DNA from: Dehalococcoidales bacterium
GTDB lineage: Bacteria; Chloroflexota; Dehalococcoidia; Dehalococcoidales; RBG-16-60-22
Reading direction: 5' to 3'
Assembly (NCBI GenBank): GCA_034430675.1
Contig: DAOUEB010000048.1
Coordinates: 1 to 55,287, forward strand
DNA: 55,287 nucleotides
The position numbers and the translations under genes were made by a program. The notes beneath the pieces are model-generated. The model was not told the origin of the DNA. It saw only the letters and a program-made list of their open reading frames with translations, and made no database searches. Below, in pieces: positions 25,192 through 45,398 of this stretch (its first letter is position 1; each line of letters opens with the position of its first letter).

Positions 25192-25254
25192 GAATTATTT
25201 CTCCCTCCGCGTGTTCCGGCAGGAATGACCGCATAATCGAGCTTTAAAAAACGA

Positions 25255-26840: not shown

Positions 26841-26890
26841 TTTACGACAAAAACCCGTAGTTAATAAAGAACATATGTGCTAATATTATC
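26841..26890 (+). promoter_or_regulatory. Promoter/operator copy 1: TACGACAAAA box plus AGAACATATGTGCTA operator overlapping the spacer and -10 (TAATAT)
   Basis: Aligns without gaps to 35409-35458, about 35 of 50 identical by my count. The 15-mer at 26868-26882 is identical to 35436-35450. Confidence 0.6.
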
Positions 26891-26916
26891 GGTAGGTTTT
26901 TGGGATAGGAGGGAAT

Positions 26917-27069
26917 ATGAGCCTATTAAGGTTAGCTGTGAAAAACCAGAGGTGGGACCTGGCGGCTCACACTATTGTCCTGGCTACTGTCAGAGCACTG
27001 AACAAAGGAGAGCTTGATGCCGGAAAGAACAGGCAGAAAAAGTACCTCAAAGCGAAGCCAAAGCGATAA
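26917..27069 (+). CDS. Small basic ORF (50 aa), first gene after promoter copy 1
   Basis: ATG 26917 follows GGAGGG at a suitable spacing. It reads MSLLRLAVKNQRWDLAAHTIVLATVRALNKGELDAGKNRQKKYLKAKPKR. It is below the ORF-track cutoff and overlaps the next ORF out of frame. Confidence 0.3.
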   Translation: MSLLRLAVKNQRWDLAAHTIVLATVRALNKGELDAGKNRQKKYLKAKPKR

Positions 27070-27385
27070 AAAACAAAATTTTTATTCCAGAGTTCTGGAT
27101 GAAGCTGAAAAGCTTGACTTTGAGCTTGCGGCTGATGTTAATGGCATCGATGACGAGATTGCTTTGCTGAGGGTAAAAATAAAGTCGGTGCTGGAGAAGG
27201 ACCCGGAGAATATCAAGCTCATCATGCAGGCGACGAACGCCCTGGCGGGTTTGGTGAAGACGCGGTACAACATCACCGGGCAGCAGCGGAAGGGGCTGCG
27301 GGAGGCAATCGGCAACGTGCTGAGGGACGTGGCGCTGCCGCTGGGGATAAATATAGGGGCGAGTGTTATCGGGAAGCAGATATAG
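27014..27385 (+). CDS. Hypothetical phage-like protein upstream of the terminase (possible small terminase subunit)
   Basis: Its position immediately 5' of TerL, a basic N-terminus and a helical body. AAGGAG precedes the ATG at 27017. No motif-level assignment. Confidence 0.4.
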   Translation: MMPERTGRKSTSKRSQSDKKQNFYSRVLDEAEKLDFELAADVNGIDDEIALLRVKIKSVLEKDPENIKLIMQATNALAGLVKTRYNITGQQRKGLREAIGNVLRDVALPLGINIGASVIGKQI

Positions 27386-27404
27386 GAGATTGGGAATTAA
27401 TAGA

Positions 27405-27425
27405 AAGAGGGGCTTCGCCCCTCTT
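27405..27425 (+). terminator. GC-rich hairpin (9-bp stem, 3-nt loop) after ORF 27014..27385
   Basis: aagaggggc-ttc-gcccctctt. There is no U-tract, so terminator function is uncertain. Confidence 0.3.
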
Positions 27426-27463
27426 AGACGCCCCATGTGGGGGCTGGGGACAAATTGAGGGAC

Positions 27464-27535
27464 GGATTGCTTCGCTACGCTCGCAATGACAGGAAGCGTA
27501 CGGATTGCTTCGTCGCTGCGCGGCTCGCAATGACA
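27464..27535 (+). repeat. Two tandem family-A repeat units immediately upstream of TerL
   Basis: ggattgcttcgctacgctcgcaatgaca (27464-27491) and ggattgcttcgtcgctgcgcggctcgcaatgaca (27502-27535). Confidence 0.8.
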
Positions 27536-27549
27536 GAAGTGGGTGAAAA

Positions 27550-28944
27550 GTGGATGAAAATATATCTATAAACAGGCTGCGGCCTTACCAGCGGGAGGTA
27601 GCGGTGGCGGTGCTGGATAGCGTGTTCGGGGGGAAGGGTTTTACCTTCTCGGTGGAAATCGCGAGGCAGGGGGGCAAAAACGAGCTTTCGGCACAGCTGG
27701 AATTGCTCCTGCTGACCCTCCACATGGGGGAGTCTAAGAATTTAATAAAATGCTCGCCGACGTTCAAGCCGCAGGCGGCGATATCGATGAGGAGGCTCAA
27801 AGACAGGCTCAACGACGCCGGATTCCGGGGCATATGGAAGTCGGAGCTCGGCTACACGGTAAGACTCGGCGACGCCCGGGCGATTTTCCTCTCGGCGGAG
27901 GAAACAGCCAACGTGGTCGGTAACACGGCCCACCTGCTCCTGGAAATCGACGAGTCGCAGGACGTCGGCAAAGAAAAATACACCAAGGAGTTCAAGCCGA
28001 TGGGGGCGACGACCAACGTCACGACCGTCCATTACGGCACGACCTGGGACGACACCACGCTGCTCGAGGAGGTCAAGCAGACGAACCTCGAACGGGAGCG
28101 CAAAGACGGCGTGAAGCGGCACTTCCGCTACGACTGGGAGGAGGTCGCCCGGCACAACCCGGACTACCGGGCTTATGTGGAGTTGGAGAGAGAACGATTG
28201 GGGGAGAACCACCCGCTGTTCCTGACGCAGTACCGCCTGCTGCCGATACACGGCGGGGGCGGATTCCTCAACGAACAGCAGAGGGCTCAGCTGCAGGGTG
28301 AGCACTCCCGGAAGCGACACGGTGAGCCGGGGAAGGTCTACGTGGCGGGAATCGACCTCGCCGGAGAAGCGGAGGAAATCGAAGGGAGCTATGCAAAAGC
28401 GGCCAAACACAGTCATGACTCAACAGTAGTAACAATCGGCGAGCTGGACTTTACGTCGGTCGATGAAATCGTCGGGGAGCCGGTCGTCAGAGTCGTCGAG
28501 CATTACCGGTGGACGGGGATAAAGCACACCGGGCTGTACGCTCGGCTGGCAGACATCATCAGGAAGGTGTGGCGGTGCCGGAGGGTAGTCGTCGACGCCA
28601 CCGGGGTAGGGGAGCCGGTGGCATCGTTCCTGCGAAAATCGCTCGGCACGCGGGTGACGCCGTTCAAGTTCACGCAGAAAAGCAAGAGCGAGCTGGGGTT
28701 CAACCTGCTGGCGGCGGTCAACGCGGGGCGGCTCAAGGTGTACCAGGGGGACGGCTCCGAGGAGTATCATGAGTTCTGGCAGGAGATGGAGAAGGCCAAA
28801 AGCACCTACCGGGCGAGCCAGACGATGAACTTCTACGTGGACGCGGCGCAGGGCCACGACGACTACCTGATGAGCCTGGCGCTTCTGGTGGAAGCGGCGC
28901 GGCTCTACGAGCCGAAAACCGCGAAGGGAGAAGAGAGGGAGTGA
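27550..28944 (+). CDS. terL: Phage terminase large subunit
   Basis: N-terminal ATPase region (EIARQGGKNE Walker-A-like; LLLEIDESQD Walker-B-like) and a C-terminal RNase H-fold nuclease region (GIDLAGE, VVVDATGVG, GHDDYLMSLALL). GTG start. Confidence 0.8.
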   Translation: MDENISINRLRPYQREVAVAVLDSVFGGKGFTFSVEIARQGGKNELSAQLELLLLTLHMGESKNLIKCSPTFKPQAAISMRRLKDRLNDAGFRGIWKSELGYTVRLGDARAIFLSAEETANVVGNTAHLLLEIDESQDVGKEKYTKEFKPMGATTNVTTVHYGTTWDDTTLLEEVKQTNLERERKDGVKRHFRYDWEEVARHNPDYRAYVELERERLGENHPLFLTQYRLLPIHGGGGFLNEQQRAQLQGEHSRKRHGEPGKVYVAGIDLAGEAEEIEGSYAKAAKHSHDSTVVTIGELDFTSVDEIVGEPVVRVVEHYRWTGIKHTGLYARLADIIRKVWRCRRVVVDATGVGEPVASFLRKSLGTRVTPFKFTQKSKSELGFNLLAAVNAGRLKVYQGDGSEEYHEFWQEMEKAKSTYRASQTMNFYVDAAQGHDDYLMSLALLVEAARLYEPKTAKGEERE

Positions 28945-28984
28945 GAAGTAACCAAATTGTATAGAAAGTAACTATTGTAAACTA

Positions 28985-29013
28985 TTGACAACCAATGGAT
29001 ACTATGGTATACT
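28985..29013 (+). promoter_or_regulatory. Near-consensus sigma-70 promoter with tandem 10-bp direct repeats over the -35
   Basis: TTGACA (28985-28990), a 17-nt spacer, then TATACT (29008-29013). ACTATTGTAA and ACTATTGACA are tandem at 28971-28990, and aagtaac recurs at 28946 and 28966. Confidence 0.55.
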
Positions 29014-29022
29014 GAAGTCACC

Positions 29023-29178
29023 ATGGAACAGAAAATCAAAACAAAGGGAAAATCAATAAAACTGAGAGCCGCAACTATTGAAAAGCTTGACAAATTGAGA
29101 CATAAAGGGCAAAGTTACGACGGAATAGTTTCGGAATTAATCGATCACTATGAAAAAGGGAAAGGATCGGGTGATTAG
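29023..29178 (+). CDS. Small putative DNA-binding protein, possibly ribbon-helix-helix-like (51 aa)
   Basis: MEQKIKTKGKSIKLRAATIEKLDKLRHKGQSYDGIVSELIDHYEKGKGSGD. The strand-helix-helix pattern (SIKL..ATIEKLDKL....SYDGIVSELI) resembles CopG/Arc-type proteins. It is below the ORF-track cutoff. Confidence 0.4.
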   Translation: MEQKIKTKGKSIKLRAATIEKLDKLRHKGQSYDGIVSELIDHYEKGKGSGD

Positions 29179-29235
29179 TTGTAGTTGAATATTGATTGAG
29201 ATATAACGATAGTGTCGGAATGAAGGAGGTGTGGT

Positions 29236-29838
29236 ATGCAAAGGATAAGCTTCAACTTCGACTATAAGAAGGCTACTCAAGAGCTCAATTATTTCGCTTT
29301 GAAAGAGGGGGGTGATATCAATAAGATGAAAGCCCTCAAATTAATATATTTCGCAGACCGATTTCATCTAAGGAAATATGGCCGCCTAATAACTAATGAT
29401 ATATATTTTGCTATGGATTATGGGCCTGTACCTTCAAATGTCAAAGACATTGCTGAAGAAACAAGTTTCCTTGGTGACAGTGAAAAGGACTATTCCTCAC
29501 AGTATATTTCCGTTATTGATAACCTTACCTTTAAATCTGTAAACCCGGTTGATAATGGTATATTTTCTGACTCAGATGTGGAAGCGTTAGACTATATTTG
29601 GGAGAGGTTTGGGCATCTTGATCAATTTGAACTCGCAGATATTACTCATGAATACCCCGAATGGAAAAGGCATGAAAAGGCATTAGATTTAGATCCCAGA
29701 ATTCAAATGTATCTGGAAGATTTTTTTGATGATCCAGATGCTGATGTTGAAAAGTGTTTTGAATTGAGTGATCAAGATAAGAATCTCCGCCGTGAACAGT
29801 TAGCAGAAATGGCCTACCTAGAATCTCTCTGGAGGTAG
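29236..29838 (+). CDS. Panacea (DUF4065) domain antitoxin-like protein (SocA/PanA type)
   Basis: KALKLIYFADRFHLRKYGRLITNDIYFAMDYGPVPSNVKDI and ELADITHEYPEWKRH match the DUF4065 pattern. Confidence 0.65.
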   Translation: MQRISFNFDYKKATQELNYFALKEGGDINKMKALKLIYFADRFHLRKYGRLITNDIYFAMDYGPVPSNVKDIAEETSFLGDSEKDYSSQYISVIDNLTFKSVNPVDNGIFSDSDVEALDYIWERFGHLDQFELADITHEYPEWKRHEKALDLDPRIQMYLEDFFDDPDADVEKCFELSDQDKNLRREQLAEMAYLESLWR

Positions 29839-29840
29839 CC

Positions 29841-30278
29841 TTGATTGATGTTCCTCCAGAAGTCGCCATCAGAGCCACTATACGACCTGGTTCTGTTTAT
29901 TATTTCACAGAAAGTAGCTTCAGTTCGTCAGAACCGCATTATTTCATTGTAATTAATATTAATCCCCATGAAGATAGAGTAATTTTTCTCGTATGCGCCT
30001 CTTCTCAAATTGAAAAGGTCAAACTACGTCAAAAAATGTGTCCGAATGAAACGTTAATTGAAATTTCCTCTAGTAAATATTCAAATTTTCACGTTGATTC
30101 AATTGTAGACTGTAATAAAGTAATAGAAAAAACTATTGATCATTTAGTAGAAAAGTTGGTACAAAGTAAACTCAAATTAAAAACTGAGATGGACATGAAT
30201 TTGGTGAAGCAATTACGGCAAGGAGTGTTACAAAGCCCCCTGGTTGAAAACCGAATTAAGGAATCATTACGTGATTAG
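29841..30278 (+). CDS. Unknown 145-aa protein coupled to the Panacea ORF (candidate toxin)
   Basis: TTG start 5 nt after GGAGG and 2 nt after the upstream stop. The N-terminal half (PGSVYYF ... HYFIVININP ... VIFLVCASS) is reminiscent of an SH3-like PemK/MazF barrel, but that is unconfirmed. Confidence 0.45.
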   Translation: MIDVPPEVAIRATIRPGSVYYFTESSFSSSEPHYFIVININPHEDRVIFLVCASSQIEKVKLRQKMCPNETLIEISSSKYSNFHVDSIVDCNKVIEKTIDHLVEKLVQSKLKLKTEMDMNLVKQLRQGVLQSPLVENRIKESLRD

Positions 30279-30344
30279 AATATATAACCAACTTGGCTCA
30301 TATCATTTTGGGTTTTCACTGTCCTGTCATAGTGTGTAGGTAAC

Positions 30345-30445
30345 TAACGAGATAAGCCGCAGATGGTGCGGGGGCGGCCCGCCTACGCCGAGGCTTCGGC
30401 GGGCAAGTCGGGGTGGGAAAAGATAACATGCGATGGGGGGGTAAG
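30345..30445 (-). repeat. Family-C dispersed repeat, copy 2 (inverted relative to copy 1)
   Basis: Its reverse complement shares gttatcttttcccaccc, cttgcccgccg and gcgtaggcgggccgccc with 16255-16385. It lacks the ~35-nt internal segment of copy 1. Confidence 0.75.
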
Positions 30446-30516
30446 GGGGGGCGTTAGTGCTCCCCCTTTTTTTTATGATATTATTGGGTCGAACGGCACT
30501 TTTAGGGAGGGTTTTC

Positions 30517-31215
30517 ATGGCGGATAAAGATTTGGAAGCCAGAGTGGCGGCGCTGGAGAAAGAACTCCAGAGGCTGAAAGACATCGAGGCGATACGCAAG
30601 CTGGAGCACGCCTACAGCTTTTACCTGGTCATGTGGATGCCCGACGAGATAATGGACCTGTTTTCATGGAGGGACGACACAACGCTGGAATGGCCGGAGG
30701 GGACGTTCTACGGCAAGGACGGCTTGAAACGGTTCTTCGGGAACATCAACCCGAATAAAGACCCGGAGTTCATGCACCAGATGATGCACCTTTCGGACGT
30801 AATCGATATAGCCGGGGATGGAAAGACCGGCCAGGGGCGCTGGTGGGGATTCGGGGCGATGGCCCTGCCCATGGGCGACATGGGCGTCAACCAGGCGCTG
30901 GCCTGCGGCATCTACGAGAACGACTTCATTAAAGAGGATGGCGTCTGGAAGCTGTGGAAAATCAAGTGGGTGCCCGTGTACTCCGGGACACCGGCGCGGG
31001 GATGGGTTAAAGAGGAGAGGGTCGCCAGGCCGCGGCCGCCCAGAGAAGGCGAAGAAATGAGGCTGCCCGAATGGTGGCAGTCGGACAAGCCGGCCAAGGG
31101 CATCGATTACGGATATCCCTCAGGTTATATACTGCCGTTCCACTTCCCGCACCCGGTGACCGGGAAGGCAACGGCCGAAGGTGAGAGAAACAAGCGCGTC
31201 AAAGGGGTGAAATAG
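30517..31215 (+). CDS. SnoaL/NTF2-like fold protein
   Basis: The pattern LEARVAALE..L.DIEAIRKLEHAYSFY is typical of SnoaL_4-type proteins. I moved the start to ATG 30517, after GGGAGGG. Confidence 0.5.
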   Translation: MADKDLEARVAALEKELQRLKDIEAIRKLEHAYSFYLVMWMPDEIMDLFSWRDDTTLEWPEGTFYGKDGLKRFFGNINPNKDPEFMHQMMHLSDVIDIAGDGKTGQGRWWGFGAMALPMGDMGVNQALACGIYENDFIKEDGVWKLWKIKWVPVYSGTPARGWVKEERVARPRPPREGEEMRLPEWWQSDKPAKGIDYGYPSGYILPFHFPHPVTGKATAEGERNKRVKGVK

Positions 31216-31243
31216 AGATTGCTTTGCTACACTCGCAATGACA
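31215..31243 (+). repeat. Family-A repeat unit
   Basis: gagattgctttgctacactcgcaatgaca. Confidence 0.75.
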
Positions 31244-31296
31244 TCCATGTGGTTGGGGGGATATTTTTACGGGGGGTGGGGATGTTAAAATAATAT

Positions 31297-31336
31297 CCCC
31301 CTCTCCTCCGGGAGGCAGGGTCCGAAGGAGAGGGGG
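31297..31336. terminator. Hairpin between convergent genes (11-bp stem ccccctctcct/aggagaggggg)
   Basis: Exact complementarity between 31297-31307 and 31326-31336. It lies between the SnoaL-like stop and the stop of the 573-aa surface protein. Confidence 0.4.
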
Positions 31337-31378
31337 TAGCAAAGGGGGGTGGGGTAAGGGAATGCAGCATACTATATT

Positions 31379-33100
31379 TTAGTAGTAGAAGGCAGTCCTC
31401 CTGCCCAGCCAGTAACCGATGCCAAAGATAAGTACCGCACCGATTCCGAGTATGGTATACAGCGCCCAGCTGGGGAAGGAACCGGGACCACCACCGGAAT
31501 AGAATTCGCCGGCACCGGTCCATTCACTTTCGTTGGAGGCGGCATCTACGGCCTGTACTCTCCAGTAGAAAGCGTCTTTGCGACCAGCCAGTTTGAGCTC
31601 CTCGGCTTCGGTCAGGGTGTAAGTGGAAAGCTCAATGTCAGTAATCTCCATGACAATGGAGGCTTCCGAGAAAGTATCGTCGGTGGCAATCTGGAGGACA
31701 TAGGTTACCGGCATGCTGTCATCGGTAACATCTTCCCAGCCGAAGGTTCCCGGAGATTTTAGTTTGACTCCCATCTCCGGTAACAGGGGCGGGGGTGTCT
31801 CCGGAGCTACCGATTCCACGGTATAGGTAATCGTATTGGTATTGGTGCCGTCGCTGACGGTTATGATATGCTCTCCGTGCGCGCTGGGCGGGGCCGTGAA
31901 GATAGACATGACCTGGCCGTTGGCATCGGCGGTTGCCGTGGCTACTTCCGTATCGTCGTATTTAATAGTAACCTCAGCATTCGGGGTAAAGCCGGCACCG
32001 CCGATGCCGATACTGGAACCGATAGTGTCACCGTCGGTGCTGATGCTGAGGACGGGGGTTGAGGTGGATGGGGGGGTGGGTGTGGGTTCGGGCGTGGGTT
32101 CAGGTTCGGGGGTGGGCTCGGTGGGAGGGGCTACGTTCAGGGTGAAACTGGCAACAGCAAGATTGGTGCCGTCATCAGCTTCCACCTGATATACTACGGC
32201 GTTTAACCCTGAAGGCACGATGAAAGATGCCGAAAAAGTACCTGAAGTGTCTGCTATTACCGGCGATAGTGTTTCCACCGGGTAAGCATTGAAGTATATT
32301 GTCGGTACCGCCCTTCTAGCGAAGCCGGTGCAGCTCATAAGCACGGTGGAGCCGGCCTCTCCCGACTGTGGTGTAATGAGTATGTCCGGCACTACGGTGA
32401 ACGTGGCGGTAACATCACTGCTGCCTACGGTCACGGTTATGGTATGGGCGCCGGCGACACTATCCGGGATGTAGATATAAGAATCAAGGCTACCGTTGGT
32501 CAGGGTTGTAGTACTGCCACTATCGATGATAACCGGGGTGCCATCATATGTGACAGTGATAGCGGTACTGGCGACATAGCCGGTGCCGACAATCCTCACG
32601 GCAGTATCTACGGGGCCGGTGGTGGGTGTAATGGTAATAGCGCCGGCGGCTATGGTGAACTGGGCTTTAGACTTAATGAGGGTAGCGCCTAACAAAGTGA
32701 CATAAATGTAGTAAGTACCGGAGGTAACGCTGACGTCAGCGGAACCATCGGTGAGTGTTGCGGGTAGCGTAAAGGTGGTGCTGAAATCCCCCTCGGTGGC
32801 GGTGTATTCTTCGCCAATAAGCGCATTCGCGACAACCTCGTAGCTATTGACGTTTGTATCAATGTACTGTCCTACTAAGGCTGAATTCTGAGCGAAGATA
32901 ACTCTGGCCCATTTTTCGCTGGTATCGGTACTCGGGGTGAAGTTAGTACCGCTGACGGTAATGGTGTCACCAACCTTACCCGAAGCCGGTGATGCCGTAA
33001 TATCATTGGTGGCGTGGACCGGCAATGCCGGTACGGCCATCAGCAAAAGTGACAGGATGAGCGTCACCACGAGCATTCTAATAATTCCTGTGTATTTCAT
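31379..33100 (-). CDS. Secreted surface protein with IPT/TIG-like Ig repeats, a PT-rich linker, an Fn3-like module and a C-terminal TM anchor
   Basis: Signal peptide (LLMAVPALPVHA). Repeated units of the type I(T/S)P..G..G..V.V.G.GF. A PTEPTPEPEPTPEPTPTPP linker. YWRVQAVDAASNESEWT. C-terminal WALYTILGIGAVLIFGIGYWLGRRTAFYY. Confidence 0.7.
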   Translation of the reverse strand: MKYTGIIRMLVVTLILSLLLMAVPALPVHATNDITASPASGKVGDTITVSGTNFTPSTDTSEKWARVIFAQNSALVGQYIDTNVNSYEVVANALIGEEYTATEGDFSTTFTLPATLTDGSADVSVTSGTYYIYVTLLGATLIKSKAQFTIAAGAITITPTTGPVDTAVRIVGTGYVASTAITVTYDGTPVIIDSGSTTTLTNGSLDSYIYIPDSVAGAHTITVTVGSSDVTATFTVVPDILITPQSGEAGSTVLMSCTGFARRAVPTIYFNAYPVETLSPVIADTSGTFSASFIVPSGLNAVVYQVEADDGTNLAVASFTLNVAPPTEPTPEPEPTPEPTPTPPSTSTPVLSISTDGDTIGSSIGIGGAGFTPNAEVTIKYDDTEVATATADANGQVMSIFTAPPSAHGEHIITVSDGTNTNTITYTVESVAPETPPPLLPEMGVKLKSPGTFGWEDVTDDSMPVTYVLQIATDDTFSEASIVMEITDIELSTYTLTEAEELKLAGRKDAFYWRVQAVDAASNESEWTGAGEFYSGGGPGSFPSWALYTILGIGAVLIFGIGYWLGRRTAFYY

Positions 33101-33184
33101 TTCAGCCTCCTGAATAAAGTATTAATATTTTATCGTGTACCAGATAAACTCCCCATTTTATATAACGTTACCACCACTCAAAAG

Positions 33185-35050: not shown

Positions 35051-35113
35051 GCTGGCCTCCTTGTGGAGGGGATTCGTTGCCGGGTAGTACCGATTTCTTT
35101 TCGTCGGCTCCTT

Positions 35114-35320: not shown

Positions 35321-35408
35321 TTTATTCTCTTAACATTCCTTAATAAATATTGCTTTATCAAAGCAATTATAACATTCCCGAACACATTTGTCAAGCATTG
35401 GCGCCCAA

Positions 35409-35458
35409 AATACGACAAAATTCCATTGACGAAATAGAACATATGTGCTATTCTAACC
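35409..35458 (+). promoter_or_regulatory. Promoter/operator copy 2: TACGACAAAA box, TTGACG, 17-nt spacer, TATTCT, with AGAACATATGTGCTA over the spacer and -10
   Basis: -35 at 35426-35431 and -10 at 35449-35454. The operator 15-mer at 35436-35450 is identical to 26868-26882. Confidence 0.65.
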
Positions 35459-35481
35459 CTGTTTGGTTTGAGAGGTGAGCT

Positions 35482-35838: not shown

Positions 35839-35863
35839 GACTATTTATTAAGGAGAAAGAAAC

Positions 35864-37252
35864 ATGGCGAACGAAACGGTCACCGCACAGTTGAATCGCC
35901 TTGACCCGGAAAGGCTCAGGGGCTATAAAGAGCTACTCGATTTCTATAACGGCCATCAGTGGGAAGGGAGAGAGAGGCGGGGCGAGCGGCGCCTGATTTT
36001 CAACTATGCCAGAGTCTTCGTGGAGAAAATAACATCGTACTTAATGACCGGCATAAGCTTCGCCGTCGACCCCTTTGAGGATTCGGACGAGGCGAGAGCC
36101 AGGGCGAGGAAGGCAGAGGCAGCCCTCTACAAGGTCTACGCGGACAATCAACTGGAGCAGCTCGACCTGGAGACGGAAATCGACTGCGCGGTGCTGGGTG
36201 ACGGCTGCTATAAGGTTACCTGGGACGCCGCCGAGAAAAGGGTCAGGGTGACGGCGCCGGACGTCCAGGGAATATATGCGTGGTGCTCGGGGGACGATGT
36301 CTCCCGGGTGTGGCGGGTGGCTTCCCGGTACCGGCTCTCCGCCGAGGAGGTCGAGCTTATCTACGGGGTAAAACCTCAGAAAAAGACGGCTATTATCGTT
36401 GAGCTGTGGACGGACAGGGATTTCGAGCTGTACCTGGACAATGCCTTAATTGAGGCCAAGCCCAATCCCTACGGTTTTATCCCGTTCATCGTCTTTCCCA
36501 ACCTGCGCGAGCCCAAGAAGTTCTGGGGGGTCTCCGACCTGCCGCAGATAATGGAGTCGCAGCGGGAGCTTAACCGCGCCATGAGCCAGCTATCGCGGAT
36601 ACTGGAGCTATCCGGGAACCCTATCGCCGTGCTGGAGAACGTGGAGGAGTCCGAGGACATCGCCATCAGGCCGGGGGCGGTGTGGAACATCCCGGAAGAC
36701 GCCAAGGCCTACCTGCTCGACCTGCTTCAGGGGGGCGGCGTCAACTTGCATATTAATTATATCGACCTGATATACCGGGCTTTGCACGACCTGTCCGAAT
36801 CGCCGAGGTCGGCTTTCGGGGGCATCGAGAGGGACATGTCCGGCGTGGCTCTGGAGATAGAGCTGCAACCGCTTTTACAGAAGGTCAGGCGGAAGAGGAT
36901 TATCCGGACGGCCGCATATAGTCGGCGCAACGAGATGATTCTCAAGCTGCTGACCCAGTACCGGGGCGAGGACTTCGGGGACAACCAGCTGCGGGTGGTG
37001 TGGGGGCCGGTACTGCCCAAGGACATGGAGAGAAAGGTGAGCAGCGAACAGGTCATGGTGCAGACGGGAATACACTCCCGGAGGACGGCCATGGACGAGG
37101 TCGGCGTGCGTGACCCCGACTACGAGTTCGAGCGGTGGCTGGAAGAAAGGGAGTCCATTCTCAAGATGAATAAAGAGCTTAATGCCAAATCCAGCAGGGG
37201 TGGAGCGAGAGAGGGAGATGTGCCGCCCCGGGCGGAAGGCGTTGAGGAGTAA
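35864..37252 (+). CDS. Phage portal protein (SPP1 gp6-like)
   Basis: YNGHQW, the NYARVFVEKITSYL segment, and its size and position before the scaffold and capsid genes. Confidence 0.8.
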   Translation: MANETVTAQLNRLDPERLRGYKELLDFYNGHQWEGRERRGERRLIFNYARVFVEKITSYLMTGISFAVDPFEDSDEARARARKAEAALYKVYADNQLEQLDLETEIDCAVLGDGCYKVTWDAAEKRVRVTAPDVQGIYAWCSGDDVSRVWRVASRYRLSAEEVELIYGVKPQKKTAIIVELWTDRDFELYLDNALIEAKPNPYGFIPFIVFPNLREPKKFWGVSDLPQIMESQRELNRAMSQLSRILELSGNPIAVLENVEESEDIAIRPGAVWNIPEDAKAYLLDLLQGGGVNLHINYIDLIYRALHDLSESPRSAFGGIERDMSGVALEIELQPLLQKVRRKRIIRTAAYSRRNEMILKLLTQYRGEDFGDNQLRVVWGPVLPKDMERKVSSEQVMVQTGIHSRRTAMDEVGVRDPDYEFERWLEERESILKMNKELNAKSSRGGAREGDVPPRAEGVEE

Positions 37253-37261
37253 TCAGGAGGA

Positions 37262-37759
37262 ATGATGGTTACGGAAAAAGAACAGGAAAAGACCGAAGAG
37301 TTAGAGGCGGACGTGGATGAGCTTGATAAGCTCAAGCAGGAGAACGAATCGCTTACCCGTGAGCTTGAGTCCCGCGACGCAACCATTATAAGGCTGGAGC
37401 AGGCGCTGGTGACGAAAGACAGCGAAATAACCGCGTTAAAGCAGTCGCTGGACGATACGGAGCAGTCGCTGGACGAGCTCGGCAAGGCCTTACCGCAGGC
37501 GGTAGCCGCCTATAAGGAAATCGTGGTGCAGGCGAACCCCGGCATCCTGACTGAGCTGATAGCCGGGGATTCCATCGAGGAAGTGAACGAATCGCTGAAG
37601 AACGCCCGGGCGCTCATGGAAAGAGTCAGACAGGAAATGGAAGCGGAAGCGGCGAAAACGAGAGTGCCTGCCGGCGCCCCGCAGAGGGCGCCATTAGACC
37701 TGTCGTCGCTCTCGGCCCGGGAGAAAATTCAATACGCAATAGGAGGTTCTTCGTCCTGA
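37262..37759 (+). CDS. Phage scaffolding protein
   Basis: Acidic coiled-coil protein of 165 aa between the portal and major capsid genes. Confidence 0.6.
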   Translation: MMVTEKEQEKTEELEADVDELDKLKQENESLTRELESRDATIIRLEQALVTKDSEITALKQSLDDTEQSLDELGKALPQAVAAYKEIVVQANPGILTELIAGDSIEEVNESLKNARALMERVRQEMEAEAAKTRVPAGAPQRAPLDLSSLSAREKIQYAIGGSSS

Positions 37760-37787
37760 TGCGTAAGAGCAGGCTACTCCCTCCCGG

Positions 37788-37915
37788 CTGGATTCTGGCC
37801 TGCGCCGGAATGACAGGTGAGTGAGAGAAGGGGGGGCGGATTGCTTCGCGGAGTTTATCCTGAGCGTAGCGTGAGGACTCGCAATGACAGGGGGAAAGCG
37901 TTCCCCGGAATGACA
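37788..37915. repeat. Cluster of family-B (ctggattc..gc..ggaatgaca) and family-A repeat units between the scaffold and capsid genes
   Basis: B unit at 37788-37815. A unit with an insert at 37838-37889. ccggaatgaca again at 37905-37915. Confidence 0.8.
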
Positions 37916-37961
37916 GATACAAACAAAACAGGAATTTTAAAAGAGGGAGGAGAAAAATAAA

Positions 37962-38882
37962 ATGGCAATGACTTTAGAAGAGGCAGCCAAGCTATCCAAC
38001 GATATGCTGCTGCAGGGGGTGGTGGAGACCATCGTCAAAGACTCGCCGGTGCTCCAGAGCCTGCCCTTTATCGAAATCGTGGGTAACGGCCTGACCTATA
38101 ACCAGGAAAAGACCCTGCCCAGCATCGACTTTTACGATGTCGGTGATACCTGGGCGGAATCGACGCCTACCTTCGAGCAAATTACCGCCAACCTGAAAAT
38201 CATGGGCGGTGACGCCGACGTGGACAACTTTCTTAAGTCCACCCGCAGCAATATCCAGGACCTGGAAGCGGCGGTAATCGAGCTGAAGGCCAAGGCACTC
38301 AAGGACAAGTTCGAAGAGATGTTTATCTACGGGGATTCCGACACCAATGCCAAGCAGTTCGACGGCTTGAGGAAACTCATCGATACCGAGTCGGCCAGCG
38401 ACCGGGTAGTGGCAATGGGGGCTACCGGCGCCACGCTGACCCTGGCCAAGCTCGACGAGCTTATCGACGCCGTCAAGGGCGGCAAGCCCGATATGCTGCT
38501 GATGAGTCGCCGTTCCAGGAGAAAAATCAATGTCCTGGTCAGGGCGGCCGGCGGCATGACCGAGACCGAACGGGACAAGTGGGGCAACTTCGTGCAGCTC
38601 TGGGACGGTGTGCCTATCGGCGTTAATGACTGGATACTGGATACCCACACCGTAGTTTCAAGCCTGGAAACAGGCACTACCGGGGGCACCTGCTCCACCA
38701 TCTACGCCGTGCAGTTCGGGGAGGGGGCCCTCTGCGGGCTGACCAGCCCGGGGCACCTGCAGGCCGAGCCGGTAGGGCCGCTGGAGAACAAGGATGCCTC
38801 GCGGACCAGGGTCAAGTGGTATGTATCTCTGGCGCTGTTTTCGTCCGTCAAGGCGGCGACATTAATCGGCGTCAAGGACTAA
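37962..38882 (+). CDS. Phage major capsid protein (HK97-fold type that uses a separate scaffold)
   Basis: 306 aa directly after the scaffold gene. The overall pattern (N-terminal LTLEEAAKLSND, FDGLRKLI, LTLAKLDELIDAV..GKPDMLLMS) is typical of major capsid families. Confidence 0.7.
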   Translation: MAMTLEEAAKLSNDMLLQGVVETIVKDSPVLQSLPFIEIVGNGLTYNQEKTLPSIDFYDVGDTWAESTPTFEQITANLKIMGGDADVDNFLKSTRSNIQDLEAAVIELKAKALKDKFEEMFIYGDSDTNAKQFDGLRKLIDTESASDRVVAMGATGATLTLAKLDELIDAVKGGKPDMLLMSRRSRRKINVLVRAAGGMTETERDKWGNFVQLWDGVPIGVNDWILDTHTVVSSLETGTTGGTCSTIYAVQFGEGALCGLTSPGHLQAEPVGPLENKDASRTRVKWYVSLALFSSVKAATLIGVKD

Positions 38883-38903
38883 AACTTTACATAAAGATAG
38901 ACA

Positions 38904-38925
38904 GGGGGAGGGAACTCCCTCCCCC
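38904..38925 (+). terminator. Perfect 9-bp GC hairpin (gggggaggg-aact-ccctccccc) 22 nt after the capsid stop
   Basis: Exact complementarity. There is no U-tract. It could attenuate read-through into the downstream genes. Confidence 0.35.
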
Positions 38926-38942
38926 TTACGGGAGGAAAAATT

Positions 38943-39407
38943 ATGGTACTGGCAGTAGTAGAACATATCGAGCACCCCTTCGCCAGGGGCAGCCTGACGG
39001 CGGACGGAGTGCAGTGGAGCGCCGAGCATACGACGACCACCGACGATTACGAGGAAGTCGAGAGCGTGACGATTAAGCCCCCGGCGCTGGGCGAAGTGCT
39101 GGAGTACGAGTTCGGGCTTACCTGCGCGGTAAAGTCGAGCGGTGCTACCGAATCCGTCCTTCTCAAGTGGCAGGCGCGCAACCAGGGTGGCACCTGGGTT
39201 GACCTTCATGACGAGGTAACCTATGCGGCTAACGCCTCTACTTACAGAGAATACACCTACAGCGGGCGCTTCAAACCGGTGGCCAACTTCGATGCGGTGC
39301 CTTTTGAAGTCCGGCTGATGGTTAAGTCGGGTGGCGCCGGAGGAGAAACCGCCACCGGCAAGACCAAGAGCTCAAGCTATGTCAAGGTAGTCTATTCGGC
39401 TTCGTGA
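38943..39407 (+). CDS. Hypothetical phage structural protein (beta-rich)
   Basis: GGGAGG RBS. Position within the structural operon. No recognisable motif. Confidence 0.45.
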   Translation: MVLAVVEHIEHPFARGSLTADGVQWSAEHTTTTDDYEEVESVTIKPPALGEVLEYEFGLTCAVKSSGATESVLLKWQARNQGGTWVDLHDEVTYAANASTYREYTYSGRFKPVANFDAVPFEVRLMVKSGGAGGETATGKTKSSSYVKVVYSAS

Positions 39408-40054
39408 GGTGTGTTGTGAAGTTTATATTTGACCCCAGTCTGGTGCTTTATCTGCCATTATATGAACAGGATGGCAGTTCCCTCTTGTCCAGGGACGCCT
39501 ACGGACATGTATGCACTGTAACGGGTGCTTTGTGGCGACCTGGCGGCAGGTACTTTGATGGCGTGGATGACAGGATTTATTGTGGGGATTCGGCAATACT
39601 TGACCTGGTTTCTGCGTTCACGCTGGAAATATGGGTTAAGACGACTGACACAGAAGGAGTGCTCCTAGCAAAGAGAACGACCCAAAGTGATTGGCCATTT
39701 GTATTCTACGTTGGTGCTTCGGTGACTCCTGCTCTCTATGCTGACGATGGTAGTGCAGATAGCGTTAGTTCTACATCAACGCTATCTGATGTTATGACGC
39801 ATGTGGTTGTAACCAGGGATGAAACTACCATTAACTTTTTCTTTAATGGTCAAGCGGATGCGGGCAACCCGCAAACACTGAAGAAGGGAAGCTCGGATGC
39901 CGATGCCAAATTTGCTATTGGGGCACAGTGGGTTGTTAATACTTGGAACAATCCTCTAATAGGGAATATCGGTGAAGCTCGCATTTACAGCCGTGTCCTA
40001 ACCCCACAGGAAATCCAACACAACTATCTGGCAACTAAATGGAGGTATCAATGA
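39404..40054 (+). CDS. LamG / concanavalin-A-like lectin domain protein
   Basis: The pattern FDGVDDRIYCGDS ... FTLEIWVKT ... ARIYSRVLTPQEIQHNY matches Laminin_G_3. Confidence 0.65.
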   Translation: MRCVVKFIFDPSLVLYLPLYEQDGSSLLSRDAYGHVCTVTGALWRPGGRYFDGVDDRIYCGDSAILDLVSAFTLEIWVKTTDTEGVLLAKRTTQSDWPFVFYVGASVTPALYADDGSADSVSSTSTLSDVMTHVVVTRDETTINFFFNGQADAGNPQTLKKGSSDADAKFAIGAQWVVNTWNNPLIGNIGEARIYSRVLTPQEIQHNYLATKWRYQ

Positions 40055-40263
40055 AGTACAGAGTGAGAGTGGACCTGAGCTTTGACAGCGAGGCCGATGC
40101 CCGGTCATTGATGGATTATGCCAGGACTTTAAGCGGCAAGGCGGTCAGCATCAACGAGAGCGAGCCCAATGAGGAGATAGCCTTCTGCGACCTGGAACTC
40201 TGCGGCCACGACGAAGGGCTGCCCTGCACCAAACTGGACAGGGTGGAAGTAAGAAAGCTATAA
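40051..40263 (+). CDS. Small hypothetical protein (70 aa)
   Basis: ATGA overlap with the LamG stop. No family recognised. Confidence 0.4.
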   Translation: MKYRVRVDLSFDSEADARSLMDYARTLSGKAVSINESEPNEEIAFCDLELCGHDEGLPCTKLDRVEVRKL

Positions 40264-40275
40264 GGAGTGGTAACT

Positions 40276-40908
40276 ATGAATCTGACTGATATGAGAGCCA
40301 TAGTCAGGCGTGACCTGCATGACGAGGACGCCGGTAACTATCGCTGGACAGACGATGAGATTAGCCGGCACATCGCTCACGCCGTTAAGGAGTTCTCCGA
40401 GCGGATACCTTATGAGCAGAAGGCGACCAAAGCCACGACATCGGCCTCGAGGGAGCTGGATATATCTACCGTAACCGACAGGGTTGTGGTGGAGGCCGTG
40501 GAGTACCCGGTAGACAGGTTCCCCAAAAGATACCAGCCTTTTTCGCTGTGGGGCGATACGCTGACTGTCCTCGGGGATGAGGTGCCGGACGGCTCCGATG
40601 CTTACATATACTATGGTAAGCTCCATACCCTCGATGCCGGCGGTTCCACCATACCCGCGCCGTATGAAGACCTGATTGCGGTCGGTGCCGGCGGCTTCGC
40701 CGCGATAGAGTGGGCGGTCTATGCGGTCAACCGGGTCAATGTCGGCGGGACGGTAACGCCGAAGGAGTTTCTCGACTGGGGTAACCGGAAGCTGAAGTAT
40801 TTCCGGCAGGAACTGAGGAGGCTGGGACGAAGAAACCGTGTCAGGACCAGCACTCTCTACCGTCCGTACTATCCAATCGTTTCGAAAACAACCGATTACG
40901 GCCCATAA
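40276..40908 (+). CDS. Hypothetical phage protein, possibly a head-tail adaptor
   Basis: AAGGAG lies 10 nt upstream of ATG 40276. The N-terminal pattern LTDMRAIVRRDLHDED....WTDDEISRHIAHAV resembles head-tail connector proteins. This is a weak call. Confidence 0.35.
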   Translation: MNLTDMRAIVRRDLHDEDAGNYRWTDDEISRHIAHAVKEFSERIPYEQKATKATTSASRELDISTVTDRVVVEAVEYPVDRFPKRYQPFSLWGDTLTVLGDEVPDGSDAYIYYGKLHTLDAGGSTIPAPYEDLIAVGAGGFAAIEWAVYAVNRVNVGGTVTPKEFLDWGNRKLKYFRQELRRLGRRNRVRTSTLYRPYYPIVSKTTDYGP

Positions 40909-40933
40909 TCGACCGGGGCACTGGAGTAAAGCG

Positions 40934-42937
40934 ATGCGCGAGTTAACATCAACGCTATTGGCCGCCCCGAAGCAGGAGGCGGCGATTCCTTACGTCAAAA
41001 TTGAGGCCGTCAACAAAATAGCCGGGGTGGTCAGACAGGACTGGTCCAGGCTGTACGATGGCTCCGAGGAGGACTACTTCCATGCCGTGACCATGCCCGG
41101 CGACGGCTCTCTTATCAGGGCCAGGATAACCCTGCCCGCCGATTCCCGGAAGCTGTACCGGCAGAGGGTGGGCAGTCCCGGCCCGGGGAGCGATTTCAGC
41201 CAGTGGACCTACACCGGCCAGTACAATGCCATCGTGGTGGTGGCGGCTTCACTGGGGACAGAGGTCTCCATCTTCTGGATTAAGTCCAACCGGGAAATCA
41301 GACGCATCAAGAGCACGGACTACGGTGTTAGCTGGGGCAGCCCCGAGCTTATCGACTACACGCCGACCACTGCTATCTACGGCCTGGCGGCGGCCTATAA
41401 GCCCGGCGGCGACCTGGCCATCTTCTTCGCCGACCAATCGACCCTCTACGTCAAGAAGAATATCAGCGGCCAGTGGCAGACAAAGGCGGCCTGGGACAGG
41501 GCCACCGGGGATTTATCCGGGGTTGCCTGTGTCTATGACGGCGACTGGAACCTGCTAATTACCGGGAAAGACACGGCGGGGAACTACAAGCTGTGGAGTC
41601 TGGTTTATGGAGATGGCGGCGATGTCGCCGCCGGGACATGGTCGGCGCTGAAAGAGCTTGCCTCGGCGCCGTCGGGTGGGGATTTCGAGTACCGCCAGCC
41701 CTTTCTGGGTAAACCGGATGTCTACCGCTGTTTCTTTGTCGAAAAATTCGCCGGCACCGCAGCCTATAATCGTCCCTTCCGGTCGCATTCCATACCCGGC
41801 ACGGATTTCATCAACGGGCTGTGGCGGGAGCCTGCGCCGTTCAATTTATCCTCGGAATACGGCCTGGCCATGGCGCACCACGGCGATTACGGCTGGCTCT
41901 CTTGTCCCGACGGCGTCTGGAGGGCACCGCTGGCTGCCCAGAGCCTCGACCTGACGGCGGATGTTGTCGGCGTCAGGCAGGAAGCCGGTGAGACTTCAGG
42001 CGGTTTAACGGTGGAACTGAGGAACGACGACGGGAGGTATGCCGCGCCGGGGGAAGGCGACCTGGCCATCCTCGACATCGGCTGCCATCTGGAGTTTAGT
42101 CCCGGCTATGTTACCCTTTCTGGCAGCGAGTACAGCGCTGGCCAGAGCTTTTGTCTGGAGTCCTACGAACATACGAGCTCCGGTGGGAAAGCCAGCCTGA
42201 TTCTGCACGCCAGGGATGGGTGGGGGGCGCTTAACGACTGGAAGGCGCGGCACCAGTTCCGCTGGAACCGGACTTCCGATGATTTTAGCGTTAAAGAAAT
42301 TATAGCTTTGATTTTAGCCAGGGTAGGCCTGAAGCTCGAGGTGATATCGCAGTCGCCGGTGGTAACCGGCTTTTACCCCGATTTTACGGTAAGCCCGGAT
42401 AATAGCGGCCGGGCGGTGATACACAAGCTGCTGTCCTTTGTCCCCGATGTCATCTTCATCGAAGGTAACAAGGCTTATATCGTCAATCCGTTATCGTCGG
42501 ATAGCTCCGTTTACAGCTACGGCGGAGAGCACCGGCTCCGGGAGGGGAGATACCTGCGGGGAGCCCTGCGAATGAACCGGGTGCAGGTGGAGGGGTATGA
42601 TACGGTCGGCGGCAATTTGATTCTGGCCGACAGCTTTGACTGGGACGAGATAGACCGACTCTACGACCGGCTGGTCCAGGTTGAGGATAGGAATACGGGC
42701 ACCGTGGCGGAAGCCCAGCAACGGGGGCAGGCTTATTTAAGACAAGCTGAGATAGAAGCGGGCGGGGGTGCGATTGTCATCCCGGTGAACTGCGGACAGC
42801 AGCTCTACGACGTCGTTGATGTGACCGATGCGCGGGCGGGACTCGATGCGGAGAAGAAAAGGGTGCTGGGCCTCGTCCTGGTCTATAATCCCCAGCGGGG
42901 AGAGTACCGCCAGCGATTAAGCTTGGGGGCGGTGTAG
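40934..42937 (+). CDS. Large phage tail-tip/hub-like protein with a BNR (Asp-box) element and a gpD-like C-terminus
   Basis: I moved the start to ATG 40934, after GGAG. The Asp-box STDYGVSW is at 41312-41335. The C-terminal segment (GQQLYDVVDVTDARAGLD ... RVLGLVLVYNPQRGEYRQRLSLG) resembles late-control gpD/hub proteins. Confidence 0.5.
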   Translation: MRELTSTLLAAPKQEAAIPYVKIEAVNKIAGVVRQDWSRLYDGSEEDYFHAVTMPGDGSLIRARITLPADSRKLYRQRVGSPGPGSDFSQWTYTGQYNAIVVVAASLGTEVSIFWIKSNREIRRIKSTDYGVSWGSPELIDYTPTTAIYGLAAAYKPGGDLAIFFADQSTLYVKKNISGQWQTKAAWDRATGDLSGVACVYDGDWNLLITGKDTAGNYKLWSLVYGDGGDVAAGTWSALKELASAPSGGDFEYRQPFLGKPDVYRCFFVEKFAGTAAYNRPFRSHSIPGTDFINGLWREPAPFNLSSEYGLAMAHHGDYGWLSCPDGVWRAPLAAQSLDLTADVVGVRQEAGETSGGLTVELRNDDGRYAAPGEGDLAILDIGCHLEFSPGYVTLSGSEYSAGQSFCLESYEHTSSGGKASLILHARDGWGALNDWKARHQFRWNRTSDDFSVKEIIALILARVGLKLEVISQSPVVTGFYPDFTVSPDNSGRAVIHKLLSFVPDVIFIEGNKAYIVNPLSSDSSVYSYGGEHRLREGRYLRGALRMNRVQVEGYDTVGGNLILADSFDWDEIDRLYDRLVQVEDRNTGTVAEAQQRGQAYLRQAEIEAGGGAIVIPVNCGQQLYDVVDVTDARAGLDAEKKRVLGLVLVYNPQRGEYRQRLSLGAV

Positions 42938-42982
42938 GTAAGGTACGAAGGAGGCATTGGAGATGAGTATGTTACCCCTTTT

Positions 42983-43056
42983 TGTCATAGTCGGGCTTGA
43001 CCCGACTATCCAGACCTCCTTACCCCCTCTGGATTCCCGCCTTTGCGGGAATGACA
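42983..43056. repeat. Composite inverted repeat (tgtcatagtcgggcttgacccgactatccag ... ctggattcccgcctttgcgggaatgaca)
   Basis: Left arm at 42983-43013. Right arm, a family-B unit, at 43029-43056. The termini tgtcat and atgaca are complementary, and each arm holds its own small hairpin. Confidence 0.7.
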
Positions 43057-43095
43057 GTTTGGGTGTCTGATTTGTATTTTCGGAGGAATTCTATT

Positions 43096-43308
43096 ATGAA
43101 GTTGAGGAAAGGTGAGCTAAGGAGTTTCAACTCCGGTAACTATACGGCCACGGTTCGACTCGCCAGCAGCTATAAGGTCTATCTGGAAGATGTGGCTGTG
43201 GCCAGGAATATATCATCGGCGGAAATGATTACCGGACGCAGGGTGGCCGTGATATTCTTCGATGAGCACAGTCCCAGGGATGCGGTGGTCGTGGCTGTTT
43301 ATACCTAA
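43096..43308 (+). CDS. Small gpV/gp5 OB-fold-like spike protein (70 aa)
   Basis: GGAGGA RBS. TATVRLASSYKVYLEDVAVARN....ITGRRVAVIFFDEHSPRDAVVVAVY resembles the N-terminal OB domain of baseplate protein V. The longer track ORF only translates the upstream repeat. Confidence 0.4.
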   Translation: MKLRKGELRSFNSGNYTATVRLASSYKVYLEDVAVARNISSAEMITGRRVAVIFFDEHSPRDAVVVAVYT

Positions 43309-44231: not shown

Positions 44232-44247
44232 GATACTATCCTATGCC

Positions 44248-45383: not shown

Positions 45384-45398
45384 ACCTATATCAGAGTA

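Follow-up and report, generated by a model that had tools for sequence, protein, structure and literature searches.

The 55,287-nt stretch of Dehalococcoidales DNA analysed here (contig DAOUEB010000048.1; the whole stretch is hereafter called the window) is chromosomal, with a GC content of about 54%, and carries phage-derived packaging and structural genes in two separated groups beside rnpB and rnhA (Table 1). Our analysis indicates, with a probability that we put at roughly 0.6, that this locus is an anciently domesticated and vertically inherited tailed-phage remnant, which would serve its host as a two-operon regulon for a DNA-filled capsid with a minimal tail, similar to a gene transfer agent (GTA). 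A preliminary description made from the sequence alone had already inferred a retained, host-controlled particle module rather than a recent prophage, and this central idea is supported by the fixed position of the locus, by selection on its genes, by their co-divergence with host genes, by a promoter element common to both operons and by the lack of a free phage among the related IMG/VR contigs listed. The data exclude both a mobile island and a prophage, whether recent or decaying.

A relative of the major capsid protein (MCP) is encoded in 336 GTDB species genomes, one genome per species, and we used the best 80 for comparison, all of which are metagenome-assembled genomes (MAGs) of Dehalococcoidales or Chloroflexota (individual loci are given L-numbers). 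When all window proteins were located in these loci by tblastn, a common order emerged: rnhA and a Zn-ribbon gene on the minus strand, s50, the small and large terminase subunit genes (TerS and TerL), and two surface-protein genes with HTH17 on the minus strand, followed by HTH118, portal, scaffold, MCP, a variable cassette, adaptor, hub, p70, a response regulator, a kinase, an XRE-family gene and a FAD oxidoreductase. The host flanks are the same in those loci that are long enough to reach them. The separation of TerL from the structural genes by about 6.9 kb, reported in the preliminary description, is confirmed (TerS and TerL at 27017-28944, structural genes at 35864-43308), as are the three left neighbours rnpB, rnhA and the Zn-ribbon gene, and the split locus occupies the same chromosomal position in all of the best 80 genomes.

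Synonymous sites are saturated among these loci (pS 0.63-0.72), and they are therefore not recent copies of one phage; the neighbouring rnhA, 53-70% identical, even falls below the 81-92% identity of MCP. Values of dN/dS lie between 0.09 and 0.18 for the enzymatic and structural genes (0.24 for the scaffold), comparable to those of genes in the host flanks (0.065 for the response regulator and 0.117 for the FAD oxidoreductase). TerL, portal and MCP, the three genes proposed for this calculation, gave 0.118, 0.106 and 0.087, which corresponds to strong purifying selection, and neutral decay is not borne out. Phage-like and host genes have also diverged together (rho 0.5-0.85 overall), with Mantel correlations of 0.85 between portal and histidine kinase, 0.84 between portal and FAD oxidoreductase and 0.64 between TerL and the Zn-ribbon gene (all p <=0.003).

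Pfam and PHROG searches with the large open reading frames (ORFs) of the 55-kb window found no integrase, replication, lysis, tail tube, sheath or tape-measure gene, in agreement with the preliminary description, which went too far only in listing a regulator pair among the missing functions; integrase, replication and lysis genes were likewise not recognised in the related loci, for which the comparison was limited to proteins of the window. The idea of an ordinary prophage or a neutrally decaying remnant can appeal to the phage origin of all the genes, to the few loci with deletions or frameshifts and to 199 related contigs listed as viral in IMG/VR, but it is contradicted by an identical position and architecture in 80 species despite saturated synonymous sites, by dN/dS values of about 0.1, by the missing life-cycle genes and by an MCP gene that is intact in 80 of 80 loci, and we consider it barely tenable. 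The best 80 of the IMG/VR contigs (L081-L160) are all fragments of 2-13 kb, with MCPs 81-92% identical to that of the window.

Deposited phages are only distantly related to the locus, the nearest reaching at most 42% identity for MCP, 32% for TerL and 26% for portal. The closest MCP relatives in the phage collection belong to siphophages of Clostridium, Streptomyces and Gordonia (38-42% identity, genomes of 42-59 kb), whereas TerL and portal find their nearest homologues in one and the same set of phages (Bacillus phage BCD7 and Streptomyces phage BRock). In the one BCD7 region inspected, TerL and portal are adjacent, and a tail sheath is annotated in this phage. Because TerL and portal match the same phages and are neighbours in BCD7, we regard their separation in the locus as secondary. 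No free phage relative of the hub was found when a distant hub was used as query.

The two operons are linked by their promoters. The region contains one notable direct repeat, of 40 nt (26843-26882 and 35411-35450), which the preliminary description missed in stating that no att-like direct repeats were present; it was right that these are not att sites, as the repeat is a duplicated promoter (P1 and P2). We considered the copies as att sites of an 8.5-kb insertion and rejected this, as in orthologous loci they lie upstream of the operons and are built like promoters. An extended -10 (TGn) and a core 16-bp near-palindrome, with the halves TAGAACAT and ATGTGCTA, characterise the element; readings as an extracytoplasmic function (ECF)-type or sigma-54 promoter were discarded because the spacing did not fit. 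In 15 of 16 orthologous loci, the P1 motif precedes s50/TerS. A strict match places the P2 motif some 45 nt 5' of HTH118 in about 48 of 63 loci, and a looser one gives 60 hits in 67 HTH118-bearing loci. Of 120 loose matches in related DNA totalling 1.17 Mb, 76 fall at P1 or P2 positions. A metagenome scan with a strict exact pattern returned matches in at least 80 loci, of which 76 could be classified; among the matches listed, all 76 are P1 or P2 (63 at P1), and none of the matches listed (at least 80) in this strict scan marks a third module or a further regulon member.

Two small helix-turn-helix (HTH) genes with operators diverge directly upstream of the portal gene, contrary to the earlier statement that the window has no repressor/Cro pair. 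HTH17 is 72-96% identical in 41 loci with a dN/dS of 0.074, and we consider it a candidate repressor. The palindrome beside its promoter is unique in the window, and promoter and palindrome together are at least 80% conserved over 33 aligned loci. HTH118 combines an N-terminal Cys-rich motif (C-x6-C-x6-C-x2-C-x4-C) with a C-terminal HTH resembling sigma region 4, gives weak matches to HTH_23 and Sigma70_ECF, and conserves both the Cys residues and the HTH in 28 orthologues, which makes it a candidate activator. The P1/P2 core also resembles GAAC-N4-GTTC, which we take to be the box bound by Dehalococcoides LexA, the literature having given nothing usable on a published Dehalococcoides LexA box; control of P1 and P2 by LexA would be a hypothesis only.

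The packaging operon begins with s50, a small ORF with tblastn matches at 46-77% identity in 15 loci and no family match in Pfam/PHROG-type searches. It overlaps the start of TerS, a gene directly 5' of TerL that the preliminary list of packaging genes overlooked. The TerS assignment comes from orthologues, 14 of 19 of which match the PHROG TerS families phrog_1889, phrog_370 and phrog_509 (best 7.7e-9). An N-terminal basic motif of TerS (consensus KRGAPKGNQNARKHG) is degenerate in the window copy and in 5 of the 19 orthologues, an indirect hint from sequence that particles would package random host DNA. In TerL, all 19 orthologues keep the Walker A (ARQGGKNE), Walker B (LLEIDESQDV) and nuclease motifs unchanged. 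Since TerS, TerL and portal are as constrained as MCP, DNA packaging is probably the activity under selection.

The structural genes named in the preliminary description (portal, scaffold, capsid, LamG, adaptor-like and hub) all hold in the places it gave for them. Portal is 64-93% identical in 74 loci, the scaffold is found in 78 of 80, and MCP is free of internal stops in all 80. The window MCP is 98% identical to NCBI entries named 'phage major capsid protein [Dehalococcoidales bacterium]', and MAG annotations label the MCP of this locus as a phage capsid. Directly 3' of the capsid gene lies a strong GC-rich hairpin of 10 pairs (38903-38926), which could act as an attenuator and yield an excess of capsid over downstream products. 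Between MCP and adaptor, at least three unrelated types of cassette occur across the loci, namely 168 aa with a large fibre-like protein, 154 aa with LamG and 74 aa as in the window, and 113, 199 and 70 aa, while 3 loci have no cassette. Some members of the other types match PHROG 'tail protein' and, weakly, 'tail fiber', and family searches gave no match for the 154-aa and 74-aa proteins and most other cassette proteins. These proteins are probably head or tail fibres or receptor-binding proteins, and we read the cassette as a swappable receptor-binding or decoration module. The adaptor that follows matches SU10_adaptor in 29 of 29 orthologues (best 2.2e-12); BLASTP detected no similarity between it and the adaptor of Streptomyces phage Rowa.

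Together with the adaptor, the products of the last two genes of the operon appear to make up the whole tail. Both ORFs had been extended too far at their 5' ends in the preliminary description, to 699 aa for the hub and 103 aa for the 'mini-spike', the real products being 667 and 70 aa. By sequence, the hub matched nothing in 50,697 phage genomes, nor in Pfam, PHROG or PDB. An AlphaFold2 run on a shallow alignment (>70% identity) reached a pLDDT of 51 and found generic propeller matches only, whereas an alignment of 30-46% identical representatives gave a model with pLDDT 96.1 and pTM 0.92. Foldseek matched this model with probability 1.0 to Mu gp44, gp27, gpD, VgrG and hubs of contractile injection systems (CIS) (E 5e-17 to 1e-12; best 7b5h_AJ at 5e-17; 1wru with a TM of 0.70), with 340-355 aligned columns and target TM of 0.65-0.73, and comparison with BFVD returned 'Tail protein / Phage protein D'. 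The pLDDT 96 model confirms the hub named earlier, and according to it about half of the protein has a hub fold of the gp27 / Mu gp44 / gpD / VgrG type, the remainder being a beta-propeller with a BNR-like motif. As the weaker first model put the propeller at residues 50-245, the hub domain would lie in the C-terminal half. The dN/dS of the hub is 0.158.

The protein encoded 3' of the hub, p70, has 49 orthologues of 70-72 aa and follows the hub directly in the distant loci L162, L164 and L166 as well; no family or PDB match was obtained. Its conservation agrees with the earlier claim of a gene at this place, at a shorter coding length, and its position suggests that it may be a spike or plug. 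In no context seen are adaptor, hub and p70 separated from one another. This order of adaptor, hub and small distal protein, with no tube genes, fits a podovirus-type tail, while the hub fold is of the long-tailed or contractile type.

It is in view of this fold that a multi-locus GTA or a defective long-tailed phage has to be weighed, whose tube, sheath or tape-measure, neck and lysis genes would reside elsewhere in the genome. The hub is typical of long-tailed phages and contractile systems, the nearest relatives of TerL and portal include the sheath-annotated BCD7, and a second clade (described below) demonstrates that modules can scatter. We nevertheless judge this explanation improbable, as the metagenome matches listed for P1/P2 (at least 80) include no third module, adaptor, hub and p70 stay together wherever they are seen, and the window shows no tube-like gene within 25 kb to the left or right of the locus.

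The second clade was reached through distant hub homologues (30-35% identity) on GC-rich contigs named 'Dehalococcoidia bacterium', one of them 2.26 Mb long. Its MCP is 53% identical to that of the window and belongs to a group in which most of the 120 homologues listed are 76-96% identical. Scaffold and MCP stand here isolated among host genes (DUF3090, adenine glycosylase, hydrolase), adaptor, hub and p70 adjoin ruvB in divergent orientation, and portal and TerL are located elsewhere; another contig of this clade has the order TerL, portal, adaptor, hub. A related element, GTGACA...AGAACAT(A/T)TGCTCTA, precedes both the head and the tail module in L162; L166 has a similar one before its head module. 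The gene set has thus been retained across deep lineages of the class, in dispersed form and marked jointly by a promoter element. More tentatively, and as a less probable extension of our interpretation, the locus may represent a class-wide, ancient Dehalococcoidia GTA of independent origin, with a tail made of the adaptor, a gp27-like hub trimer and a 70-aa plug, a promoter element marking every scattered module, and surface proteins that in one clade might form a receptor or exclusion system.

What separates the halves in the window is in part conserved. The conserved insert is a minus-strand operon, HTH17 followed by the two surface-protein genes, and of the 26 loci that cover the interval from TerL to HTH118, 25 have the surface proteins. 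They evolve fast (median dN 0.52-0.65, dN/dS 0.27-0.35). Both have a similar C-terminal anchor, FP(G/S)W followed by a hydrophobic helix and then RR(T), which may be an uncharacterised sorting signal, and FN3-like repeat units common to both genes appear as direct repeats (D1, D2 and D10). The cargo block next to TerL has a GC content of 43%, against about 54% elsewhere in the window, and is absent from most orthologous loci, in which TerL abuts the surface-protein genes. Because many loci run from TerL directly into these convergent genes, we consider the cargo recent and outside the machine. Its first three genes (29023-30278), encoding DUF7557, a SocA/Panacea-like protein and an unannotated protein of 145 aa, are probably toxin-antitoxin or defence cargo.

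These proteins also bear on whether the particle, once accepted as domesticated, transfers genes. GTA-like transfer is the most economical function, with a killer or defensive role as the alternative: a particle kept as a PBSX-type killer, as a decoy or abortive-infection device, or for DNA release in biofilm formation or nutrition. The evidence for domestication applies equally to such a particle, the fast surface proteins and the swappable fibre/lectin cassette resemble an arms-race interface, and a probable toxin-antitoxin module has landed within the locus. Opposed to this are the constraint on TerS, TerL and portal, which is like that on MCP and points to DNA packaging, and family searches that found no toxin, lysin or effector domain on the hub or cassette proteins, so that we regard a purpose other than transfer as unlikely.

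Known systems resemble the locus in part. Like RcGTA, the GTA of Alphaproteobacteria, it has phage-derived head and packaging genes at a fixed site that are inherited vertically over a large clade and kept by purifying selection; genes for an integrase or for replication are lacking, and the components can be spread over several loci under common regulation. RcGTA, in contrast, builds a siphovirus tail that includes a tube and a tape measure, and it has a prohead protease and lysis genes, while the Dehalococcoidales locus has a scaffold, no protease and a tail of adaptor, hub and 70-aa protein; the cluster of 15-17 genes typical of the RcGTA family, with protease, tube and tape measure, is not found in the window. 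The homology seen is limited to the generic HK97 capsid, portal and terminase folds, to which the comparison extended, and the hosts are Alphaproteobacteria in one case and Chloroflexota in the other. RcGTA is regulated by CtrA/GafA, as opposed to the duplicated local promoter element of the present locus. BaGTA, VSH-1, Dd1, VTA and PBSX are also host-retained particles that package host DNA, some of them induced by DNA damage, and PBSX sits at one site in related species; as far as is known, these systems all have complete long tails and lysis genes. We found none of their type reported from Dehalococcoidia in the literature, nor any published description of a GTA or conserved capsid locus in Dehalococcoidia or Chloroflexota; IME1, described in a recent preprint, is an unrelated element without tailed-phage genes.

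In gene order, the locus resembles podoviruses like P22. The late operon of P22-like phages encodes TerS, TerL, portal, scaffold, coat, gp4 adaptor, gp10 hub and gp26 needle, and its scaffold works without a protease. The locus has the same order down to the small distal protein, and the same scaffold-based, protease-free assembly. It differs in its hub, which has the gp27/Mu gp44 fold and a beta-propeller and is not of the gp10 type, in having no ejection proteins, tailspike, lysis or lysogeny genes, and in the host-type surface-protein operon that separates TerL from portal. The hub shares the fold of about half its length with T4 gp27, Mu gp44, P2 gpD, VgrG, the hubs of CIS and Photorhabdus virulence cassettes (PVC) and the N-domains of siphophage Tal proteins. 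It differs from them in its fused beta-propeller and in a gene that comes directly after that of the head-to-tail adaptor, where genes for a tube, a sheath and baseplate wedges are lacking; at the sequence level, Pfam, PHROG and PDB profiles detect no similarity.

Capsid-forming phage-inducible chromosomal islands (cf-PICIs) also carry their own TerS, TerL, portal, capsid and adaptor and no tail tube, and the locus could on that account be a grounded island of this kind, with heads that rely on the tails of a helper phage. These islands, however, are mobile elements with integrase, replication genes and helper induction that borrow their tails, whereas the locus is immobile, co-diverges with its host from a fixed position and has its own hub; the window search revealed no integrase, alpA-type module, primase or replication origin, and conserving a hub and p70 would serve no purpose with borrowed tails. 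Such an origin therefore appears very improbable.

If the locus does encode a GTA-like particle, we envisage its action as follows. A signal would lift repression at P1 and P2, through LexA, HTH17 or HTH118 as regulator. Scaffold and MCP would then assemble on the portal, and TerS/TerL would fill the head by headful packaging, probably with host DNA and with little sequence preference. Adaptor, hub trimer and the 70-aa plug would close the portal and constitute the whole short tail, while the LamG/fibre cassette and the beta-propeller of the hub would bind the surface of related cells. Release might come with the death of the producer cell. Cultured Dehalococcoides are not known to have a peptidoglycan wall, and an endolysin and a long tail may be dispensable if the cells concerned are wall-less. 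The delivered DNA would finally recombine in the recipient.

Several points weigh against this interpretation. The locus is known from its genes, and the particle, the packaged DNA and the transfer are all inferred. Pfam and PHROG searches of the window revealed no holin, endolysin or other release function, and we know of no characterised precedent for a tail with nothing more than an adaptor, a hub and a 70-aa protein. Genes for a tube or a neck may be present in other parts of the genome, beyond the 55-kb window scanned. If the capsid were sized like those of the nearest phage relatives, with genomes of 42-59 kb, it could accommodate the whole locus, unlike that of RcGTA. About five loci (L077, L067, L071, L062 and L057) are damaged by deletions or frameshifts, some of which may be assembly errors. 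As for regulation, the right half of the LexA-like box departs consistently from GTTC, being GTGC in the window clade and GCTC in the second clade, and the right part of the box doubles as the extended -10; LexA control is doubtful for both reasons.

Table 1. Features of the window discussed in the text (positions in nt of the window; aa, amino acids).
Feature	Position	Strand	Evidence or remarks
rnpB (RNase P RNA)	25253-25610		left neighbour of the locus, with rnhA and the Zn-ribbon gene
Promoter P1, packaging operon	26843-26890	+	ACGACAAAA-N15-AGAACATATGTGC-TAATAT, upstream of s50-TerS-TerL
s50, small conserved ORF, 50 aa	26917-27069	+	first gene after P1, overlaps TerS start
TerS, about 122 aa	27017-27385	+	upstream of TerL
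REP-like (repetitive extragenic palindromic) dispersed repeat	27465-27543		GATTGCTTCGC...CTCGCAATGACA; spacer between TerS and TerL
TerL, ATPase and RNaseH-like nuclease	27550-28944	+	Pfam Terminase_6C 1.8e-9, PHROG TerL families
Cargo block	29023-31215	+	DUF7557 (51 aa), SocA/Panacea antitoxin-like (200 aa), putative toxin (145 aa), SnoaL_4 (252 aa); Pfam
Two membrane-anchored surface proteins, 573 and 621 aa	31379-35050	-	Pfam TIG, Big_6, Rha78A Ig; Ig/TIG/FN3-like repeats
HTH17 (HTH_17, MerR/excisionase-type), 68 aa	35114-35320	-	PF12728 9.4e-12; first gene of leftward operon
HTH17 promoter	35350-35394	-	consensus sigma-70, TTGACA-17-TATAAT with TG; 12/12 match
Palindrome TTGCTTTATCAAAGCAA	35350-35366		just downstream of the -10 of the HTH17 promoter
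Promoter P2, structural operon	35411-35458	+	P1-type element, -35 = TTGACG, upstream of HTH118-portal
HTH118 regulator, 118 aa	35482-35838	+	phrog_836 'late transcriptional activator' 6.9e-7; first gene of structural operon
Portal	35864-37252	+	SPP1_portal 1e-25, phrog_64 1.9e-40
Scaffolding protein, acidic coiled coil	37262-37759	+	coiled-coil matches only; position between portal and capsid genes
Major capsid protein, HK97-fold	37962-38882	+	phrog_212 1.5e-73
Variable cassette	38943-40263	+	154-aa protein, LamG lectin-fold protein (216 aa), 74-aa protein
LamG	39404-40054	+	Laminin_G_3 2.6e-20
Head-to-tail adaptor	40276-40908	+	Pfam SU10_adaptor, window copy 2.6e-5
Tail hub, 667 aa	40934-42937	+	AlphaFold2 and Foldseek; exact 667-aa product present in databases
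p70, conserved 70-aa protein	43096-43308	+	always 3' of hub
Core genes of the window			alaS, ruvX, dnaJ, gpsA, plsY, der, polA, fpg, DAHP synthase, ctpA, rnhA, pyrF, tRNA-Glu

The short dispersed repeats that the preliminary description had reported from phage-derived and backbone spacers alike were located at 27465-27543, 31217-31248, 37785-37900 and 43028-43056, after galU and after the AI-2E transporter gene. The family of the copy between TerS and TerL recurs at 2118-2201 (after galU), 16084-16116 (after the AI-2E transporter gene), 31217-31248 and 37840-37890. Two short palindromic families, TGTCATTGCGAG.../...CTCGCAATGACA and GGATTCCCGCCTTTGCGGGAATGACA-like, fill the spacers of core and phage-derived operons, and they generate spurious ORF extensions, such as the first 33 codons of the 103-aa ORF mentioned above. 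An inverted repeat pair, 16267-16390 / 30341-30428 (36 nt at 92% and 48 nt at 77%), joins the spacer 3' of the AI-2E transporter gene with that 3' of the cargo toxin gene and may be a miniature inverted-repeat transposable element (MITE)-like element tied to the cargo insertion. The sole transposase in the window (DDE, IS240/rve type, 6191-7177) belongs to an insertion sequence at 5625-7248, which also encodes a 189-aa ORF and has inverted repeats of 31 nt (5725-5755 and 7218-7248).

To the right of the locus, the minus strand encodes a signal peptidase (S26) and then two secreted proteins of 349 and 251 aa (43305-46154), present in about half of the orthologous loci, whose N-termini resemble TasA/camelysin-type signals by eye. 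One domain of the 349-aa protein is also found, encoded on the plus strand, in MCP-adaptor cassette proteins of L029, L051, L064, L070 and L080. At 46208-47143, a plus-strand ORF of 311 aa has tblastn matches with internal stops in 20 of 27 loci and is overlapped by an opposite-strand ORF of 270 aa (46321-47133), and the true gene is probably on the minus strand. Further right (47303-49290, minus strand) are an OmpR-type response regulator with 84-93% identity in most species, a short histidine kinase that lacks a sensor, and an XRE-family HTH protein, all three of which occur in most loci reaching that far; these are possible host regulators of the locus, to which synteny is their sole tie. 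Among the core genes, alanyl-tRNA synthetase (2312-5242) is long, at 976 aa; matches to its catalytic domain fall into two stretches, with weak zinc-ribbon / DUF7130 matches at about 481-534, which suggests an inserted domain.

Dehalococcoidia are abundant in aquifers and sediments and include key organohalide respirers; their genomes are small, and their dehalogenase genes lie in islands with signs of horizontal transfer. For such organisms, the locus offers a testable vehicle of gene exchange. The at least 199 'viral' contigs of this host locus in IMG/VR amount to a systematic false positive that inflates prophage and virus-host counts for the class. In evolutionary terms, the locus would represent a further independent domestication of a tailed phage, and in structural terms its tail may be unusually reduced. 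Should the class-wide GTA proposed above be real, it would be a new minimal delivery device, maybe one suited to cells without a peptidoglycan wall. The maintenance of a particle locus of about 12 kb at housekeeping-level constraint over hundreds of species implies a real role in the fitness of these bacteria.

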